DNA of 64,000 bases from a virus. Its lineage: Duplodnaviria > Caudoviricetes. This document shows positions 4,064 through 35,282 of the stretch, piece after piece (position 1 is the stretch's first letter; each line of letters opens with the position of its first letter). The position numbers and the translations under genes were made by a program. The stretch lies in the IMG/VR virus record IMGVR_UViG_3300020577_006545, positions 1-64,000 of that record; one strand, written 5' to 3'. Under the pieces are notes generated by a model. That model was not told where the DNA came from and made no database searches. It saw nothing but the letters and a program-made list of their open reading frames with translations.

Positions 4064-4384
4064 GTGTTAAATCAGCAACAAATAAAAATTCTTGAAATAG
4101 TAGAAAACCGTTTCATTAATGAAACATATTACGATAAAGACGGTGGGACTAAGCCTAAAGGTGGCTCTTACGCTTATGCAAAAAATGATGGTGATAATCC
4201 AATCGGTGAAATCGTAAATGACACAATCAAAAATGAAATAGCGTACAAGAACTTCTTTGAATATATAAAGAATAATTTTAACAGTTACGGTGCGAAAAAA
4301 GTAACTATTATTGAAGCAATTTTACACGCAATTGATGATGATGAAGAGTTTGATGCAATTAAGGAAGTGGTGACTAGAAAATGA
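4064..4384 (+). CDS. Hypothetical protein
   Basis: 106 aa ORF, GTG start. Confidence 0.55.
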   Translation: MLNQQQIKILEIVENRFINETYYDKDGGTKPKGGSYAYAKNDGDNPIGEIVNDTIKNEIAYKNFFEYIKNNFNSYGAKKVTIIEAILHAIDDDEEFDAIKEVVTRK

Positions 4385-4409
4385 GTATAAAAAGAATTAG
4401 AGGTGTTAT

Positions 4410-4607
4410 ATGAAATTAAAACAAATAAATGAAATTCTTGGCCATGTACCAAATTCAGACGATATACCGTCGTTACAAAATGATATATTAATAGCGATTG
4501 ATAACATAAAAAAGAAGGTTAAATTAATAATAAAATCAGATGCGTCTGATGAAGATAAATGTAAAGAATTAAGCTCATTATGGCTTAAATTAAAAAACTT
4601 GGCATAA
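4410..4607 (+). CDS. Hypothetical protein
   Basis: 65 aa; GAGGTG SD; MKLKQINE start. Confidence 0.55.
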   Translation: MKLKQINEILGHVPNSDDIPSLQNDILIAIDNIKKKVKLIIKSDASDEDKCKELSSLWLKLKNLA

Positions 4608-4611
4608 AACA

Positions 4612-6585
4612 ATGAGTATAGTAAATTCATTCATATTTGACAGTACAGATGAGCTTGTATATGACGCTTCTAAAATAGAAGTAATTACAACGATTGATGA
4701 TGAAACATCTTATAACCCATTCTCATTTTCTGGAAGTGTTGGAACATTCGGCTTCTCAGCATCGGGTTCTCCATATGTTTCTACAAGTGGAGAGATCATA
4801 TCATTTGATTTTTCAGAACCAAGAAAACTAAAAAGCATTACTATAGAACAAAGCCCTGTAGATTATGCAGTGTCATACAAAATTACAGGTGGACTTGCTT
4901 CAAGAAATGAAGTAACATTAATCAATGTAAGCGGATCAGTGAATAGTGGCGACATATACCATTTATTTTCAAATCCTCTTGAATTAAGATATGTAGATTT
5001 TATCGTTTATGAAGTTCCTGAGTTCAGTACTACATTTACAGTAATATCTGTAAGCGGAGAAGCAAACGCACCGTTCACAGAAGCTAAGATAACGTCTGCT
5101 CAAATTGAGACTATCACTGCTACATCTAATGTAGAGCCTGTTGAAAATCTATATGATGGTGATGCTCTAACATTCTGGCAGTCTAACAACTCATACCCAC
5201 AAGAAGTCATTTTCAAATTAAGAGATGTGACAAATCTATCTAAGTTTGAATATGTAGCAGAAGACAGCACAACATATCCAACAGCTTATACAATTTACAA
5301 ATCTCTTGATGGATCAACATACGATTCCATCTATTCTTCTGGTTCTATATCGGCAACATCAGGTTCTATCACATTTAATCCATTAGAAACTACAAAATAT
5401 CTAAAATGGAAGATCACTGGTGGCAACTCAAACAAAGTAAGAATTAGAGAAGTTTCTATATACAAGAAATCTTACGATACCATTGATGTAAATCAAGTAA
5501 GACTTAAAAAAACAGTTTCTGATGTAATGGCTCTTGTACCATCATTATCTTCAACAACTGCAAATGGTGCGAACGTAGTTTCTAATCTAATAGCAGGAGT
5601 TGATGGTTATTGGCAATCAACAAGCACATTTACACCTTCAAATAATTTCTTTGTTGGTTCTGAAAATATCACATTTACATTCACTTCAAGCACAACTATA
5701 GATAATATGGTGATTAAAGGATATGCTGACGACGGTCTTCCTGTAGATTTCCAATTACTGGCATCAGTAGATAACTCTACGTTTGATGTACTAGCAGATT
5801 ACACTGGTAACGTGCAAGAGAATGTTAAAATCGCGTTTGCAGAAACGGATCATAACGAATATATATTCTATAAACTAGTATTTACAAAATCAACAGACGC
5901 TTATGTTAAACTTAAGGAAATAAATTTCAATACAAGAACATATCCAACTCTAGCATCTGTAGTGTTACAGGGTATAGTAACTGACAGTATCAAGAGTGTC
6001 AATGTTACAACCTCAGATGTTGACTTAACCAACAGAGATATTAAATATACATTAAATATTGATAACAGAAATTTCTGGTTCGCTGGCAATGCTTTTGTTC
6101 AATCAAATGGGACATTTAATCAAGCAAATACGCTTGATGATCTAAACGCAAATTTTGAAGCATTAACATTAAATCAAAACTCAAAAGTTGCATTGAATGC
6201 AATTCTGTCTTCAAATGGTATGTCAACTCCAGTTATTGAATCCGCGTCAATGACAAGTAAAAATCTTGCTAATGCACCATTCATTCCGTCTGGACAAATC
6301 AGGATAAGGGGTTATATTGCAGGTCATGTTGGGAAGCCACTTGAGATGACTGTATCACTTAAAAGACCTGTTAAGATTGATGGGCAGATTGTAGCGTATT
6401 CAGCTAACATAATTAAGAGTGATAGTCAAGGATATTTTGATTTTACTCTACCTTGTACAGAAACAGCAGTTCCAGCAAAAGAGAAATTTGTTGTTGTTGC
6501 TCAACCTCTAAATTATAGAGTTGAAAGATACACACCAAATCAAACAGATATTGATCTCGCTCTATGGCTTGGAGGGACTTTTTGA
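4612..6585 (+). CDS. Discoidin/F5-8 type C domain-containing virion protein (receptor-binding/tail)
   Basis: Repeated discoidin-like units: NLYDGDALTFWQSNN..PQEVIF, NLIAGVDGYWQST, KYLKWKIT..VRIREV, FYKLVFT..VKLKEI. Confidence 0.65.
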   Translation: MSIVNSFIFDSTDELVYDASKIEVITTIDDETSYNPFSFSGSVGTFGFSASGSPYVSTSGEIISFDFSEPRKLKSITIEQSPVDYAVSYKITGGLASRNEVTLINVSGSVNSGDIYHLFSNPLELRYVDFIVYEVPEFSTTFTVISVSGEANAPFTEAKITSAQIETITATSNVEPVENLYDGDALTFWQSNNSYPQEVIFKLRDVTNLSKFEYVAEDSTTYPTAYTIYKSLDGSTYDSIYSSGSISATSGSITFNPLETTKYLKWKITGGNSNKVRIREVSIYKKSYDTIDVNQVRLKKTVSDVMALVPSLSSTTANGANVVSNLIAGVDGYWQSTSTFTPSNNFFVGSENITFTFTSSTTIDNMVIKGYADDGLPVDFQLLASVDNSTFDVLADYTGNVQENVKIAFAETDHNEYIFYKLVFTKSTDAYVKLKEINFNTRTYPTLASVVLQGIVTDSIKSVNVTTSDVDLTNRDIKYTLNIDNRNFWFAGNAFVQSNGTFNQANTLDDLNANFEALTLNQNSKVALNAILSSNGMSTPVIESASMTSKNLANAPFIPSGQIRIRGYIAGHVGKPLEMTVSLKRPVKIDGQIVAYSANIIKSDSQGYFDFTLPCTETAVPAKEKFVVVAQPLNYRVERYTPNQTDIDLALWLGGTF

Positions 6586-29408: not shown

Positions 29409-29819
29409 ATGAACGCAATGGAAATGGAAAGTGCAATGATTGGTTATGAAGCCGCTCAACAAGTAGCGATGATGCTTGGAAGAGATTTGATTGCTTATAA
29501 AAATAAAGAAAATGAAAATTTTAAAATTGAAAAATGGGATTGGGGTGGAGTTGAATACGATCAAGGCGATCAGCATGTTCAAGTATATATTGAGAGATAT
29601 TGTTGTGGTGAAAGTGACACAGAATGGATTAATATTCCATTTGAATGGTTTGATATGAAAAGAGAAGACATTTACGCTATTATTGATAAAGAAAGAGAAG
29701 AGAAAAAAAGAATAGAAAAAGAAAGAGTTGAAGCGATGAAAAAACAAATGGAAGAAGAAACGCTTGCTGGCGAGAGAAGATTATACGAAAGTTTAAAAAG
29801 GAAATTTGAAAATGTTTGA
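29409..29819 (+). CDS. Hypothetical protein
   Basis: 136 aa ORF, GGAG SD. Confidence 0.6.
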   Translation: MNAMEMESAMIGYEAAQQVAMMLGRDLIAYKNKENENFKIEKWDWGGVEYDQGDQHVQVYIERYCCGESDTEWINIPFEWFDMKREDIYAIIDKEREEKKRIEKERVEAMKKQMEEETLAGERRLYESLKRKFENV

Positions 29820-31134
29820 AAAATTATTGAGTTTGATTAACACAAACCAGTTTCTAACTGGTGGTTTTATATTAGGATTACTTGGAGGTATCGCCGTCTA
29901 TCTGAGAAGCGTTCCTGCAAACATATTATATTTTATAAGAAGGAGAATTGTGTTCTCTGTTGAAATTGAGAACCATTATGCTTCTTTCCATATGTTCTCA
30001 TACTGGCTTCAAAAACAGAAACCAGTATTTAAGAATAAGAATTTCTTCTTGAGAGAAGAACAGAGGATTTCAAGAAATGTTGAATTTGATGATGACGATG
30101 ACGATGAGTTTGGCAATACAACTGGAAAAGAAAAAAGAAAAAATAAAATTTTCTATGTTCCATCAAGTGGGCTTCATTTCTTTAAATACAACAAGAAACT
30201 TCTTATTATCTATTTCTATAGAAAAGAAGTGAATAACACGAACTCGTCTCCAGAATTTGAAAGCCCATTCCGTTATTCATATACAATTTATATGTTTGGT
30301 AAAAACGAAGAATGCCAAAAAACTATTGATATGATTGTTGAAGAGAGTGGGGCAGAACTATCTAAAAAGACAGATGGAAAAATCAAAATCCGCGCATCTG
30401 CTAATATTATAAGATATGGAGAAAATACATTTAACTGGAAACTTTCTGCATACAAACACCCAAGAACAAAAGAAACACTTGTTTTTGATGATGGTTTCTA
30501 TGAAGATATTGAAAGTGATATTGATAAATTTCTTCATAATAAACAATGGTATAAAGAGAAAGGAATTCCTTGGAGAAGAGGTTATCTCCTTCACGGTGTC
30601 CCAGGTGGTGGTAAGACTACTCTTATTGAAACTATTGCTGGTAGATTTAATTTCAACATCAATATTCTTGATTTAATGAATGATAAACTGACAGACCAAT
30701 ATTTAATTGAATTGTTTGCTTCTAATAAAGACAATTCAATTATTGTTGTTGAAGACATTGACACAATCTTTGAGAAAAGAACGCCGACAAGTGATAAAGT
30801 AAAAATAACTTTTAGCGGTTTGTTAAACGCTATTGATGGCATTGCGTCTAAAGATGGGCAGATTATTTTTATGACCACAAATAACATTGAAGTCCTTGAC
30901 GATGCACTCAAACGGTCAGGTCGCCTTGACAAACACATTGAATTTGATTATGCAAGTGAACAACAAAAGAGAAAGATGTTTCTTAAATTCTTTAAAGAGG
31001 ATGAGTTGAATGCTAATAAATTTATGGATATAATGAAAGGGGTAAATATATCTATGGCTAAATTACAGGAACATTTCGTTCTTTACTCTTATGATGTAAA
31101 TGCTATTTTTGAAAACATTGGAGAATTAAAATGA
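29806..31134 (+). CDS. BCS1-like AAA+ ATPase with N-terminal membrane anchor
   Basis: WYKEKGIPWRRGYLLHGVPGGGKT, IVVEDID, ITFSGLLNAIDG, MTTN..LDDALKRSGRLD. Confidence 0.88.
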   Translation: MKMFEKLLSLINTNQFLTGGFILGLLGGIAVYLRSVPANILYFIRRRIVFSVEIENHYASFHMFSYWLQKQKPVFKNKNFFLREEQRISRNVEFDDDDDDEFGNTTGKEKRKNKIFYVPSSGLHFFKYNKKLLIIYFYRKEVNNTNSSPEFESPFRYSYTIYMFGKNEECQKTIDMIVEESGAELSKKTDGKIKIRASANIIRYGENTFNWKLSAYKHPRTKETLVFDDGFYEDIESDIDKFLHNKQWYKEKGIPWRRGYLLHGVPGGGKTTLIETIAGRFNFNINILDLMNDKLTDQYLIELFASNKDNSIIVVEDIDTIFEKRTPTSDKVKITFSGLLNAIDGIASKDGQIIFMTTNNIEVLDDALKRSGRLDKHIEFDYASEQQKRKMFLKFFKEDELNANKFMDIMKGVNISMAKLQEHFVLYSYDVNAIFENIGELK

Positions 31135-32192
31135 TTAAACTATATAAAACAAATGTAAATGGATCAACCCAAATGTGGGAGGCTTTCTGTGAAGGAAATA
31201 CTCTCACTGTTAGATGGGGGCAAGTAGATGGTAAAATTCAAGAGAAGGTTACTGTTTATAAAGAAGGGAAAAATAAAAATCGTGCTAACGCCACGACGCC
31301 TGAGCAACAAGCTATCCTTGAAATGAATTCTACTGCTCAGAAAAAAAGAGATAAAGGATACAGTGAAAAGATTGGAGAGAGTTCAAGAAAAGTTCCTCTC
31401 CCAATGCTTGCTAAAGTTCTTGATGATAAAACTAAATTGACTAAAACAGTTTTTGTTCAACCTAAACTTGATGGCATTAGATGTCTTGCCGACCCAAAGA
31501 CAGGAGAACTATTTACAAGAAACGGTAAGAAACTTGTTGGGCTTGAGCATATTGAAGAAGCAGTAAAATCATTGAAATCAAGAGTATGGTTGGATGGTGA
31601 ACTTTACACTCATGGCATGACATTTCAAGAACTTGCGTCTGCCATCAAAAGAATTAAAACAGTATCAGAGAAAGCAAAAGATGTTAAGTATGTTTTATTT
31701 GATGCGATCAATGACGATAAATATCTTGATCGTCTTATGTATTTAAGAAGTATAGTAAATGGCGATTGTCTTGAAATAGTTGGTTGTAAAACAGTTAATG
31801 GAACAAGAGACGAAATAAACAAAGCTCATTCTGAATTTATTGAAGATGGATACGAAGGAACTATGGTTCGTCTTAACGATGAAACAGGATACGAAATAGC
31901 AAGAAGAAGTAAAACACTTCTAAAGAAAAAAGATTTTCTTGATGCTGAATTTACCGTTGTTGGAACAAAAGCGGAAGAGAACAGGGATGATATCCTTGGT
32001 TCTTTTATACTTGAAATGGAAGATGGTAAAACTTTTGATGGACGACCTGCTTGCACTATGGAAGAAAGAAAGAATATGTGGAAAAATAGAAAAGACTATA
32101 TAGGGCAGAGAATGACTGTGAAATTTCAGCAATTTTCAGATGATGGAATTCCCCGTTTCCCTGTGGTGATGGGTATTAGAGAAGTAGATTAG
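31131..32192 (+). CDS. ATP-dependent DNA ligase with N-terminal WGR-like domain
   Basis: QPKLDGIRC (motif I), LDGELY, EGTMVR, LLKKK, OB-fold end DGIPRFPV. Confidence 0.92.
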   Translation: MIKLYKTNVNGSTQMWEAFCEGNTLTVRWGQVDGKIQEKVTVYKEGKNKNRANATTPEQQAILEMNSTAQKKRDKGYSEKIGESSRKVPLPMLAKVLDDKTKLTKTVFVQPKLDGIRCLADPKTGELFTRNGKKLVGLEHIEEAVKSLKSRVWLDGELYTHGMTFQELASAIKRIKTVSEKAKDVKYVLFDAINDDKYLDRLMYLRSIVNGDCLEIVGCKTVNGTRDEINKAHSEFIEDGYEGTMVRLNDETGYEIARRSKTLLKKKDFLDAEFTVVGTKAEENRDDILGSFILEMEDGKTFDGRPACTMEERKNMWKNRKDYIGQRMTVKFQQFSDDGIPRFPVVMGIREVD

Positions 32193-33121
32193 TGAAAAAA
32201 TGACAGTATACTAAGATTTCCATATAAGATAATATCATGTATGTTTATGCACTTATGAATATAATAAACGGTAAATTATATGTTGGTAAGACTACTAATA
32301 TTGTAGCAAGGTTAAGAGTGCATAAACATAATGGTAAAAACAAGTCTAAACATAAATTAAATATTTATTTATATAACGCAATTCATAAATATGGGTGGGA
32401 AAATTTTAATTTTTGTATCCTTTCCGAATGTAAATCTGATAATGAATTATCTAAAAAAGAATTATTTTGGATTGATTATTTCTCATCATCCGATAGGAGT
32501 TTTGGATATAATATAGTCAAAAGCGATAGTGGGTTTTACAGACACTCTGCTGAAACAAAAAATAAAATAAGTAAAATAAACAAAGGTAGAAAACGTACAA
32601 AAGAACAATGTGATAAAAACAAATTATTGCAAAAAAATATATGGGATAATCTTTCTTCTTCAGAAAAAATGGAAAGGCAAATTAAGGCGTATGCTGGTAA
32701 AAAAATAAAAGTTAGAAAATTTTATATAAAAAAAATACATAGGATAAGACAATTTTTAAAACTTTTAAGTAAAGACGAAATCAAAATGATAGGCGGTGTT
32801 AAAAGAATAATTGCGTGGAGAAATGGAAATAAAAATCCATTTAGTAAAAATGAAGTATCACTTTTAATATCAAAATTAAAAAAAGGTAAACCATTGAAAA
32901 TAAATACAAAAGAAAAAATAAGAAAGAAAATACTTGGCTCAAAAAGACCAAAACAAATGGTTCAAGTCTTAGAGTACGATAAAAATATGAATGTTATTAA
33001 CAGTTATAGTTCTATAACAGAAGCAAGTCTTATGACTGGATGTTCCTCTTCAAAAATATGTGATGTGTGCAAAGGGAATAGAAAATCAACTAAGGGGAAA
33101 ATATTTGGCTATGGAGATGGA
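32142..33121 (+). mobile_element. Homing-endonuclease cassette: replacement ligase 3' end + promoter + GIY-YIG
   Basis: Ligase terminal 16 codons are duplicated either side of the GIY-YIG gene. Confidence 0.75.
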
Positions 33122-33175
33122 GATGGAAAACCACGCTTTCCAGTAGTTCTTGGTATAAGGGAGATTGACAAATGA
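32237..33175 (+). CDS. GIY-YIG homing endonuclease (NUMOD3/NUMOD1) fused in frame to a ghost ligase C-terminus
   Basis: YVYALMNIINGKLYVGKT..R..H..Y.AIHKYGWENF; RHSAETKNKISK; ends DGKPRFPVVLGIREIDK*. Confidence 0.9.
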   Translation: MYVYALMNIINGKLYVGKTTNIVARLRVHKHNGKNKSKHKLNIYLYNAIHKYGWENFNFCILSECKSDNELSKKELFWIDYFSSSDRSFGYNIVKSDSGFYRHSAETKNKISKINKGRKRTKEQCDKNKLLQKNIWDNLSSSEKMERQIKAYAGKKIKVRKFYIKKIHRIRQFLKLLSKDEIKMIGGVKRIIAWRNGNKNPFSKNEVSLLISKLKKGKPLKINTKEKIRKKILGSKRPKQMVQVLEYDKNMNVINSYSSITEASLMTGCSSSKICDVCKGNRKSTKGKIFGYGDGDGKPRFPVVLGIREIDK

Positions 33176-33276
33176 AAGAAAAGTTTGACAAAAATAGTGG
33201 CAATGGTATTATGTTCGTTGCCTTTGGTTTTGTATTATTAGTTTCAGCTTTGTTAATTTTGTTAAAAATGAATTAA
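33172..33276 (+). CDS. Small membrane peptide (not in ORF track)
   Basis: ATGA overlap with preceding stop; 34 aa with one TM. Confidence 0.5.
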   Translation: MKEKFDKNSGNGIMFVAFGFVLLVSALLILLKMN

Positions 33277-33286
33277 AGTTACCAGT

Positions 33287-33478
33287 GTGTTCTGGAACTT
33301 ATTTGAAGCAATACTCATAATATTCGCTGTTTGCTTTACATCTTATGAATTTGAGATGTTTCAACAGGCTTCAGTTAATATTATGGTATTGCTTTCTGTG
33401 TTTATATTCACATTTCCTGTAGTTCTGTTTTTTTATTTGGTTTATAGATTTTTGGTTAGAAAAATAAAAAGTTATTAA
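33287..33478 (+). CDS. Small membrane protein
   Basis: Two TM segments, GTG start. Confidence 0.55.
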   Translation: MFWNLFEAILIIFAVCFTSYEFEMFQQASVNIMVLLSVFIFTFPVVLFFYLVYRFLVRKIKSY

Positions 33479-33489
33479 TAACAAAAGAG

Positions 33490-33672
33490 ATGGAAGCGTT
33501 TATTTTATATATTATTATAGTAATGCACGGGTCAATTACAATTAATACTGAAAAGTATGATACATACGAAACTTGTGCAACCGCTAAAAAGTTTGCCGGT
33601 CAATTATTACGCGATATTGCTAAAAAAGAAGGCGAAAACAACGAAGTTTACACATTCTGCACAAAGAAATGA
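33490..33672 (+). CDS. Small exported/membrane protein
   Basis: Hydrophobic N-terminus, two Cys. Confidence 0.55.
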   Translation: MEAFILYIIIVMHGSITINTEKYDTYETCATAKKFAGQLLRDIAKKEGENNEVYTFCTKK

Positions 33673-33824
33673 AACCGTATCCAAAAACAAAATGGGAACA
33701 TATAGTGTTTACATTTACTGACCACGATAGTTTTATTGGGTTTGTAAAAATTGCTGTATTAACATTACCGTTATTAGGATCATTATATTTATTGTATTTT
33801 TTACTTGCTGTGTGGAAATTTTAA
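33669..33824 (+). CDS. Small membrane protein (not in ORF track)
   Basis: ATGA overlap; 51 aa with C-terminal TM. Confidence 0.5.
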   Translation: MKPYPKTKWEHIVFTFTDHDSFIGFVKIAVLTLPLLGSLYLLYFLLAVWKF

Positions 33825-33839
33825 TTAAAATTGAATAAT

Positions 33840-33923: not shown

Positions 33924-34118
33924 ATGGAAAAGACTTTAAAAGTTTATGGATTTTGCCGTGAAAAATGCTGTCCTGTTGTTGTGGATAATGGAACAGAAAT
34001 CGTTATTGGCGAAGAAAAAACTGAAAACGGGCTTGGTGGATTTACTGCTATGAGCAGACAACAATTTAAAGACTTTGTTGACGCCGCTAAAGCCGGTAAG
34101 TTTGATGAGGTATTGTAA
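33924..34118 (+). CDS. Small Cys-containing hypothetical protein
   Basis: 64 aa, FCREKCCPVV. Confidence 0.6.
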   Translation: MEKTLKVYGFCREKCCPVVVDNGTEIVIGEEKTENGLGGFTAMSRQQFKDFVDAAKAGKFDEVL

Positions 34119-34189
34119 TAGTACTACAACATCTTGAACTAGCGTTAATTTCAGCGTTTGCAACTTTTATTTTTGTGAGGGGTTTATGA
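34118..34189 (+). pseudogene. Ghost N-terminus of the 35004 membrane-protein gene
   Basis: (I)VLQHLELALISAFATFIFVRGL* aligns with LKSLEILVVTACATFIVVFSRL; start appears degraded TAATG>TAATA. Confidence 0.7.
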
Positions 34190-35007
34190 ACAAAAAGCCT
34201 TTCACAGAAAGAGAAAAAAAACAAATAATTGATTGGTATGTTAAAGACAATTTATCAATTAATAAAATAGTTGAAAAAACAAATATTTGGAAACCAAGAA
34301 TAACTTCTTTATTAAAAGAGAATAATATTTTTATAAATTATGATAGAAAAAATCATAAATATAAATATAACGAAAATTTTTTTTCCAATATAGACACACA
34401 AGACAAGGCATATATTTTAGGTTTGTTATTTGCTGATGGATGTGTTCATTCAAAAAGAAACGCTGTTTCTTTAGGTCTTCAAGAAGTAGATAAAAATATT
34501 TTGGAACAAATTACTAAATGTTTAGTAGTTGGCAACAAAAATTTGAGGTTTACAAATAACACTATAAAAAATCATAAAAATGTTGTTAGTAGAAAAAATA
34601 CTTACATATTTGAAATAAATAATGAGAAAATAAAAGATGATTTAATTAGATTAGGATGCACACCAAAAAAAAGTTTTACATTGAAATTCCCAAACATTGA
34701 TAAAAAATTACAAAATCATTTTATAAGAGGATATTTTGATGGTGATGGGTGTATGTGGGTTAGTAAAAAAAATAAAATAGATTGTGTTTTTAGTATTTTA
34801 GGTACTTTTGAGTTTTTAGAAACTATCCAAAATATTTTATATACAGAATGCGGGTTAAATAAAACTAAAATACAAAAACAAAGCAGTATTTTTAGATTAC
34901 AATATGGAAGAAAAAAATCTTGTGATAAATTTAAAGATTATATTTATCAAGATGCTAATATGTTCTTAAAAAGAAAATATGATAAGTTTTTGGAGATTTC
35001 GGGATGA
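34186..35007 (+). CDS. LAGLIDADG homing endonuclease (two motifs) with N-terminal HTH
   Basis: AYILGLLFADG and HFIRGYFDGDG. Confidence 0.92.
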   Translation: MNKKPFTEREKKQIIDWYVKDNLSINKIVEKTNIWKPRITSLLKENNIFINYDRKNHKYKYNENFFSNIDTQDKAYILGLLFADGCVHSKRNAVSLGLQEVDKNILEQITKCLVVGNKNLRFTNNTIKNHKNVVSRKNTYIFEINNEKIKDDLIRLGCTPKKSFTLKFPNIDKKLQNHFIRGYFDGDGCMWVSKKNKIDCVFSILGTFEFLETIQNILYTECGLNKTKIQKQSSIFRLQYGRKKSCDKFKDYIYQDANMFLKRKYDKFLEISG

Positions 35008-35282
35008 GTATTTTTGATTTAAAATCATTAGAGATATTAGTTGTAACAGCGTGTGCAACTTTCATAGTCGTGTTCAGCAGACTATTCAAGCCTTTAAGAG
35101 AAAGAATTGAGTTTTTTAGATGTTCGCTTTGTGTAGCATTTTGGGTAGGCATTATATTTGCCGCGACAGACCTGATCTACTATAAATCGCCCTTTGACAT
35201 ACTTTATGTATTCAAAATGGGCATCGCCTCATCAGTTCTTTCTTTTTTAACTTACAATTTACTACACAAACTGGAGCGTTAA
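35004..35282 (+). CDS. Membrane protein, holin candidate
   Basis: 3 hydrophobic segments, directly upstream of lytic transglycosylase. Confidence 0.55.
   Translation: MSIFDLKSLEILVVTACATFIVVFSRLFKPLRERIEFFRCSLCVAFWVGIIFAATDLIYYKSPFDILYVFKMGIASSVLSFLTYNLLHKLER

Follow-up and report, generated by a model that had tools for sequence, protein, structure and literature searches.

The DNA ligase gene of a Caudoviricetes phage, known from IMG/VR record IMGVR_UViG_3300020577_006545, very probably hosts a splicing-free homing-endonuclease cassette of a "spare gene end" type: a GIY-YIG nuclease gene brings along a substitute for the end of the ligase gene and strands the native end on its far side. 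The record comprises 87 kb and is rated 36% complete; we analysed its first 64 kb (positions 1 to 64,000), referred to below as the window.

Anatomy of the insertion

The first-pass annotation of this DNA, made from the sequence alone, had noticed that the end of the ligase gene is duplicated around a GIY-YIG open reading frame (ORF), and this we confirm. The ligase ends in ..KFQ QFSDDGIPRFPVVMGIREVD, the GIY-YIG ORF in ..GKIF GYGDGDGKPRFPVVLGIREIDK. Over 16 aligned codons the two ends have 13 residues in common, three of these 13 residues are encoded by the same codon, and 32 of 48 nt are identical (67%). The duplication is longer than first described, the native tail consisting of 22 codons plus stop and the replacement tail of 20 codons plus stop. 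The overlap (ATGA) of the distal copy with the following ORF, also mentioned in the earlier annotation, is present at 33172. The ligase gene took up the insertion at a single site within its 3' end, where the KFQ codons meet the first codon of the tail. The G+C content of the cassette is 26.4% versus 31.6% for the window. The parts of the locus are compiled in Table 1.

Table 1. Features of the ligase locus and of the adjacent spare-end locus in the window
Feature	Position	Strand	Basis
Hybrid ATP-dependent DNA ligase gene, 353 aa	31131..32192	+	Pfam; 2q2t alignment; L004 comparison
Native ligase body	31131-32129	+	97.6% identity to L004 as far as base 32129
Inserted cassette, 977 bp, composed of replacement ligase tail, spacer and GIY-YIG ORF lacking a stop codon of its own	32130..33106	+	L004 comparison
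Foreign replacement ligase tail, QFSDDGIPRFPVVMGIREVD + TAG, then TGA; 20 codons, supplies motif VI	32130..32192	+	67% DNA identity to the displaced native tail over 48 nt
Spacer, 44 nt, with sigma-70-like hexamers	32193..32236	+	Read from the sequence
GIY-YIG homing-endonuclease ORF, 312 aa	32237..33175	+	Pfam GIY-YIG
Nuclease's own 290 codons, no stop	32237-33106	+	ORF read-out into the native tail
Displaced native ligase tail ("ghost"), GYGDGDGKPRFPVVLGIREIDK + TGA, 22 codons, in frame with the nuclease ORF	33107..33175	+	69/69 nt identical to the L004 ligase end
34-aa membrane protein gene	33172..33276	+	ATG overlaps the stop of the displaced tail (ATGA), as in nuclease-free relatives
Stranded native 5' end of the 92-aa membrane-protein gene	34118..34171	+	Same sequence as the gene's 5' end in L004
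LAGLIDADG gene (34186-35007), then 92-aa gene (35004-35282) with replacement 5' end	34186..35282	+	LAGLIDADG_3, 1.9e-10

The hybrid ligase matches the Pfam families DNA_ligase_A_M (PF01068; 1.3e-18) and DNA_ligase_OB_2 (PF14743; 1.6e-12), the latter match extending to residue 350 of 353. The Chlorella virus ligase 2q2t can be aligned (5.9e-18) through ..PRFPVVMGIRE, which represents motif VI. Judged by these matches, the protein is a minimal two-domain ATP-dependent ligase, consisting of a nucleotidyltransferase domain and an OB domain that ends in motif VI. By the same comparison its ORF is complete, with the inserted tail supplying the remainder of the OB domain together with motif VI.

The native ligase end in uninterrupted relatives

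The closest ligase in a collection of 5.8 billion proteins, P0001 (90% identity), is encoded on contig L004. It is uninterrupted and ends in ..KFQ-GYGDGDGKPRFPVVLGIREIDK, which is exactly the distal sequence of the window, and the 34-aa gene follows with the same ATGA overlap. At the DNA level, window positions 31306-32129 correspond to L004 1600-2423 (97.6% identity) and window positions 33107-33815 to L004 2424-3132 (96.1% identity). Since the two L004 blocks are contiguous across positions 2423 and 2424, the insert in the window measures exactly 977 bp, with no host base lost or duplicated. In-silico removal of 32130-33106 restores the ligase ORF, and 287 of its last 290 residues then match P0001. 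The DNA bordering the insert is identical to L004 over 81 nt on the left and 374 nt on the right (33107-33480). The similarity of the two tails is not a chance resemblance, because the displaced tail and the next 305 nt are 100% identical to the uninterrupted ligase end of L004 and its downstream DNA.

A further lineage, represented by contigs L005 and L007 (82-85% identity), also has an uninterrupted ligase gene with a native-type tail (..GWGD...LPRFPVVLGIREIDQ) and has kept the ATGA overlap. A fourth ligase, P0156, is known as a protein only and ends in ..GYGDGDGKPRFPVVLGLREIDQ, a native-type tail with two changes (..LGLREIDQ). Based on this outgroup comparison (L004, L005, L007 and P0156), an uninterrupted gene is the ancestral condition and the native gene end is represented by the distal copy, in line with what the first-pass annotation had proposed. 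It had recommended a search for relatives with an uninterrupted junction between the ligase gene and the small membrane-protein gene: L004, L005 and L007 have this junction, with a distal-type tail. Nuclease-free relatives carrying the proximal sequence, which would have contradicted the proposal, did not turn up, as the proximal tail was found neither in the nuclease-free loci L004, L005 and L007 nor in protein P0156, all of which are of the distal type. Among the loci seen, foreign tail and nuclease were never found apart (L019-L024, see below), and every native-tail locus seen is without the nuclease; a joint arrival of proximal tail and nuclease is supported by this comparison of loci.

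The nuclease and its spacer

The nuclease matches the Pfam GIY-YIG family (PF01541) with an E-value of 2.7e-13 and 50.4 bits (cut-off 22.6 bits), and residues 5-94 of the I-TevI catalytic domain (1ln0) align with it. The conserved positions Y15, G17, R25, E75 and N92 are present, and the ORF is of full length. The GenBank phage collection yielded no match. Its C-terminal region aligns with a ..G.IW.Y motif of related nucleases, which end in ..G.(I/Y).W(K/R)Y plus zero to five residues. The corresponding residues here are ..KGKIF followed by GY, and this GY is contributed by the displaced ligase tail, which suggests that the junction between nuclease and native tail may have formed at a short stretch of shared sequence. 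When the last 45 residues of the nuclease ORF were compared with the 5.8 billion proteins, only the nuclease itself and P0001 matched.

According to the first-pass annotation, the nuclease gene has its own promoter directly behind the ligase stop codon. The hexamers ATGACA (32200-32205) and TATAAG (32223-32228) are indeed present with a spacing of 17 nt, the second one ending 8 nt before the ATG. As a promoter, the pair looks like a chance-level look-alike: it is missing from the list obtained in a consensus scan, and 23 promoter-like sites were found in the AT-rich stretch compared with 23.7 +/- 4.7 in shuffled sequences. No Shine-Dalgarno sequence was detected in the 44-nt spacer. A motif that the spacer seemed to have in common with the leader of the L004 nuclease gene did not hold up. 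An operator of the I-TevI style was likewise rejected, the similarity between spacer and empty site being no better than in shuffles (p about 0.4).

Distribution among related phage assemblies

There are 13 contigs on record with exactly this hybrid ligase, and we examined six loci, drawn from as many samples (L019-L024). The GIY-YIG ORF follows the ligase gene in all six, and the 34-aa gene is also present in five; L024 ends inside the nuclease ORF. In L019-L023 the cassette is identical at 977 of 977 positions and both junctions are identical as well. The left junction is also seen in L024, the right one in L012. The DNA upstream is much less uniform. Between L021 and the window we counted 288 differences in 2248 nt upstream (12.8%), followed by none in 2587 nt (31049-33635). 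In the case of L024 there are 196 differences in 1142 nt upstream (17%) and then none in 1821 nt (30925-32745), where the contig ends. L021 and L024 differ from each other too. An identical block, comprising the ligase gene, the cassette, the displaced tail and about 460 nt beyond, is hence found in at least three backgrounds. The block has the look of a co-conversion tract, as homing with co-conversion would leave exactly such a pattern. Close relatives are thus polymorphic for the cassette at one precise site (L004 is empty, L021 and L024 carry the block), with flanking DNA co-inherited.

The relatives include a contig of 356 kb, which is why we address the phage as a jumbo phage. This contig (L019; ENA ERZ4216102, NODE_1; 356254 bp) holds the same locus and probably represents a full genome of the phage group.

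The same architecture could be that of a fossil element, i.e. the nuclease would be inactive by now and the identical block would stem from ordinary recombination between co-infecting phages. Decay after fixation is common among homing-endonuclease genes, and nearby endonuclease genes in this region also lie at recombination boundaries. We nevertheless consider a fossil unlikely, given the full-length ORF with its conserved catalytic positions and the lack of a single substitution in the cassette across five assemblies and three backgrounds. Moreover, empty-site alleles coexist with occupied ones, which means that the cassette has not become fixed.

Origin of the replacement tail

The first-pass annotation had viewed the proximal copy as recoded in place. 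In such a case, the gene end would have been duplicated when the nuclease inserted, and synonymous changes in the proximal copy would then have been selected for escape from cleavage. What speaks for it is the small number of shared codons, three among the 13 conserved residues versus 6.3 expected under independent draws from the codon usage of the genome. The P value of 0.052 is marginal, and a donor with a different codon usage would explain the shortfall. On the other hand, the six residues preceding motif VI are QFSDDG in the proximal tail and GYGDGDG or GWGDPDKDGNLG in the local clade, differing in sequence as well as in length. QFSDDG fits the consensus of distant ligases (..F/Y-S/T-DDG-I/V-PRFPV) and not that of the local clade, which argues for import of the tail rather than rewriting in place. 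In addition, the flanks that are identical to L004 (81 nt on the left, 374 nt on the right) leave no time for 16 in-place changes within 48 nt. Recoding in place is therefore highly improbable, and we regard the proximal tail as a foreign, diverged ligase end.

The earlier impression that the proximal copy uses unusual codons did not survive comparison with the distal copy. The proximal tail contains the rare codons CCC (2% of proline codons), CGT (7%) and GTG (11%), the displaced tail CGC (2%), AGG (12%) and GAG (20%). Summing the log relative codon frequencies gives -17.4 for the proximal tail and -15.3 for the displaced one; both tails contain rare codons, and those of the proximal copy are no more unusual. 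The G+C content at third codon positions is 0.25 versus 0.23, and among 20-codon windows the tail takes a median position. We accordingly dropped codon bias of the proximal copy as a sign of selection.

The exact position of the insert relative to an uninterrupted homologue would also suit a self-splicing intron or an intein, in which case the 977 bp would be removed from the RNA or protein and the ligase body joined to the distal tail. Group I introns have a U before the 5' splice site and a G at their 3' end; inteins are in frame and contain no stop codons. Here, a G precedes the insert and its last base is a T, which is unfit for a group I intron, and no Rfam intron model matched. The insert opens with a full ligase tail in frame, after which come TAG and TGA; its length, 977, is not divisible by three, and the nuclease frame differs from that of the ligase body, making a spliced element practically inconceivable. 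Finally, an assembly chimera of two strains, a concern with any window derived from a metagenome assembly, has a negligible chance of being correct, as the junctions (one or both in each case) recur base for base in seven other assemblies and the two tails, at 67% identity, are too different for a misjoin.

We thus return to the interpretation as a cassette that delivers a substitute ligase end together with its nuclease, against which the following points have to be kept in mind. Ordinary mosaic recombination of phages could also produce an identical block in diverged backgrounds. The phage is known from metagenomes alone, and nuclease and ligase are known here from their sequences only. The two nearest relatives of the nuclease are 31-33% identical and neither of them lies beside a ligase gene. 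Exact and degenerate DNA pattern scans of IMG/VR did not find the donor of the foreign tail. Matches to DNA-binding modules all stay below threshold (NUMOD3 19.2 bits, cut-off 20.4; NUMOD1 18, cut-off 22.8; I-HmuI_NUMOD-like 23, cut-off 27), even if these weak NUMOD-type matches suggest the presence of a DNA-binding region.

Comparison with known systems

The spare-end design is known from fungal mitochondria and yeast. In fungal mitochondria, "gene hybrids" with mobile ORFs (mORFs) have been described for atp6 of Allomyces macrogynus and for atp6, atp9, cox2 and nad3 of Glomus (PMC3630166). As in the ligase locus, an endonuclease ORF (LAGLIDADG, or GIY-YIG in atp9) resides in the 3' part of a host gene, a divergent inserted C-terminus completes the gene, and the native C-terminus, displaced downstream, is the one closest to relatives (PMC3630166). 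Identity between the two copies is 63.5% at the DNA level in the mORF system compared with 67% here, with high protein identity (PMC3630166). The phage case differs in that it concerns a bacteriophage instead of an organelle and a DNA ligase as target. Also, the nuclease, whose own start codon is preceded by a stop codon and a spacer, continues into the native tail, and population data are at hand in the form of identical cassettes in diverged genomes.

The second precedent is provided by the WHO homing elements at FBA1 of the yeasts Torulaspora and Lachancea, for which cleavage and allele-specific resistance were demonstrated by experiment and the downstream fragment's function as a homology arm was likewise tested (PMC7282813). 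Their unit, too, combines a replacement 3' end conferring resistance (presumed in our case) with an endonuclease gene, and the 5' portion of the target gene differs in its history from the 3' portion (PMC7282813). However, WHO nucleases are intein-derived LAGLIDADG-zinc-finger proteins acting in meiosis, and the fragments are roughly 400 bp in length, not fused to the nuclease ORF and piled up in tandem (PMC7282813).

Among phages, the free-standing GIY-YIG and HNH endonucleases Seg and Mob of T4-like phages perform intronless homing with co-conversion, examples being mobE in nrdA and mobA in a topoisomerase gene (PMC2988022), and the boundaries of exchange in T4-like endonuclease homing have been reported (PMC10448857). 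The nuclease of the ligase locus resembles them in being phage-encoded and free-standing and in its I-TevI-like GIY-YIG domain. Further common features are the presence/absence polymorphism in close relatives, the co-travelling flanking DNA and the location beside or inside an essential replication gene. In contrast, the T4-family cases described there lie between genes or divide their host gene into two polypeptides (PMC2988022, PMC10448857). Neither PMC2988022 nor PMC10448857 describes a cassette by which a substitute gene end is supplied and the native end left stranded. We found no published phage case of the spare-end architecture in the literature, our coverage of subscription journals being incomplete. 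With a substitute end that, by sequence comparison, completes the host ORF and a native end that is displaced beyond the nuclease and resembles that of the relatives, the phage ligase locus would add a member to this design, matching it feature for feature.

An engineered relative is the synthetic home-and-rescue gene drive HomeR (PMC7968924). If our interpretation is correct, the phage cassette is a natural counterpart of such "home-and-rescue" drives. HomeR reportedly cuts an essential gene and carries a recoded, cleavage-immune rescue of the part downstream of the cut, badly repaired alleles being lost. It is said to be an engineered Cas9 drive in a diploid animal, whereas the phage cassette is natural and viral and employs a protein-guided nuclease.

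Proposed mode of homing

By analogy with the WHO elements and the mORF gene hybrids, we infer the following mechanism. In a mixed infection, the enzyme would cut cassette-free ligase alleles at the insertion point (about L004 2423/2424) or no more than a few tens of bases away from it. The left broken end could then pair with the ligase body and the right one with the displaced tail and the downstream genes, and repair would copy the 977 bp into the empty allele. The carrier itself would be immune, as the insert splits the site and the active tail has just 67% identity to its native counterpart; with 16 differences in 48 nt in addition to the split site, escape of the proximal tail from cleavage is plausible. 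Alleles that lose the cassette or are badly repaired would lose the essential ligase motif VI, which would make sloppy repair costly. The founding event probably joined the 3' end of a nuclease gene to the break end, GY of the native tail completing the ..IF.Y motif that closes related nucleases. Speculatively, read-out through the displaced tail, which keeps the stop-start overlap with the 34-aa gene, may limit polar effects.

If true, the stranded native end serves as the right-hand homology arm, and read-through maintains the ancestral ATGA coupling to the downstream gene. A homing endonuclease could then occupy an essential phage gene without intron, intein or gene splitting by carrying a diverged substitute for the piece it severs. 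This would be one route by which essential phage genes become chimeras of different ancestry. In annotation, the 22 ligase-derived residues that end the nuclease, as well as short stubs next to other endonuclease genes, should be read as displaced gene ends instead of novel domains or genes.

Other nuclease genes in the region

Two more cassettes of the spare-end design were found in the same 5-kb region, one in L004 and one in the window. In L004, a 238-aa ORF (4408-5124) with an HNH-like motif, recognised by eye and without a Pfam hit, lies in the 3' end of a gene for a 92-aa membrane protein. This gene ends at about L004 position 4398 in a substitute tail (..VLYNIIKKLEV), and the HNH-like ORF reads out into the native one (..LTYNLLHKLER). 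The window shows the mirror-image arrangement, with the native 5' end of the 92-aa membrane-protein gene left behind upstream of a LAGLIDADG gene, which is followed by a substitute 5' end with an ATGA overlap (Table 1). The LAGLIDADG gene is missing from L004, where positions 4184 to 4196 correspond to window positions 34171 to 35078, and a truncated remnant of 141 aa is present in L005 and L007. Altogether, window and L004 differ by five presence/absence differences of nuclease genes in about 5 kb. As three cassettes within 5 kb have naturally occurring occupied and empty alleles, the region would make a compact test system.

More generally, spare-end cassettes may be a general and hitherto undescribed way for homing endonucleases to inhabit phage coding sequences, used by at least three unrelated nuclease genes (GIY-YIG, LAGLIDADG and HNH-like) in this jumbo-phage clade, with the insertion point marking the break point and the stranded end being a working part. 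We put this forward as a tentative generalisation, leaning slightly towards doubt.

The native 5' end of the 92-aa gene (L004 4118-4190; window 34105-34171) has no in-frame ATG, GTG or TTG, even in L004, where this site is free of a nuclease gene. The frame opens with ATA, which shares bases with the upstream TAA (TAATA); an ATG close by (GATGAGG) is off frame by one base. Either the gene uses a non-canonical start or the L004 copy is broken.

Directly 5' of the ligase gene, the window encodes an AAA ATPase of the BCS1 type (BCS1_N, AAA and AAA_lid_BCS1; 29806-31134), again with an ATGA overlap. The pair of BCS1-type AAA ATPase and ligase is kept in all relatives seen. In L004 a different GIY-YIG/NUMOD3 gene (535-1419) is located between the BCS1-like AAA gene and the ligase gene. 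The first approximately 60 codons of the L004 ligase (L004 1416-1600) are replaced by a variant similar to L006. A stranded copy is missing, and the arrangement has the look of ordinary co-conversion of a flank at the opposite end of the ligase gene.

L004 (3139-3882, minus strand) and L019-L021 (5692-6435) contain a gene of 247 aa that has paired zinc-ribbon motifs and matches DUF559/DUF723 weakly. It possibly encodes a homing nuclease of the PD-(D/E)XK type. It is absent between window positions 33829 and 33884, and its presence or absence is independent of the ligase cassette. Divergence from the window sets in at 33636, adjacent to where this gene is inserted.

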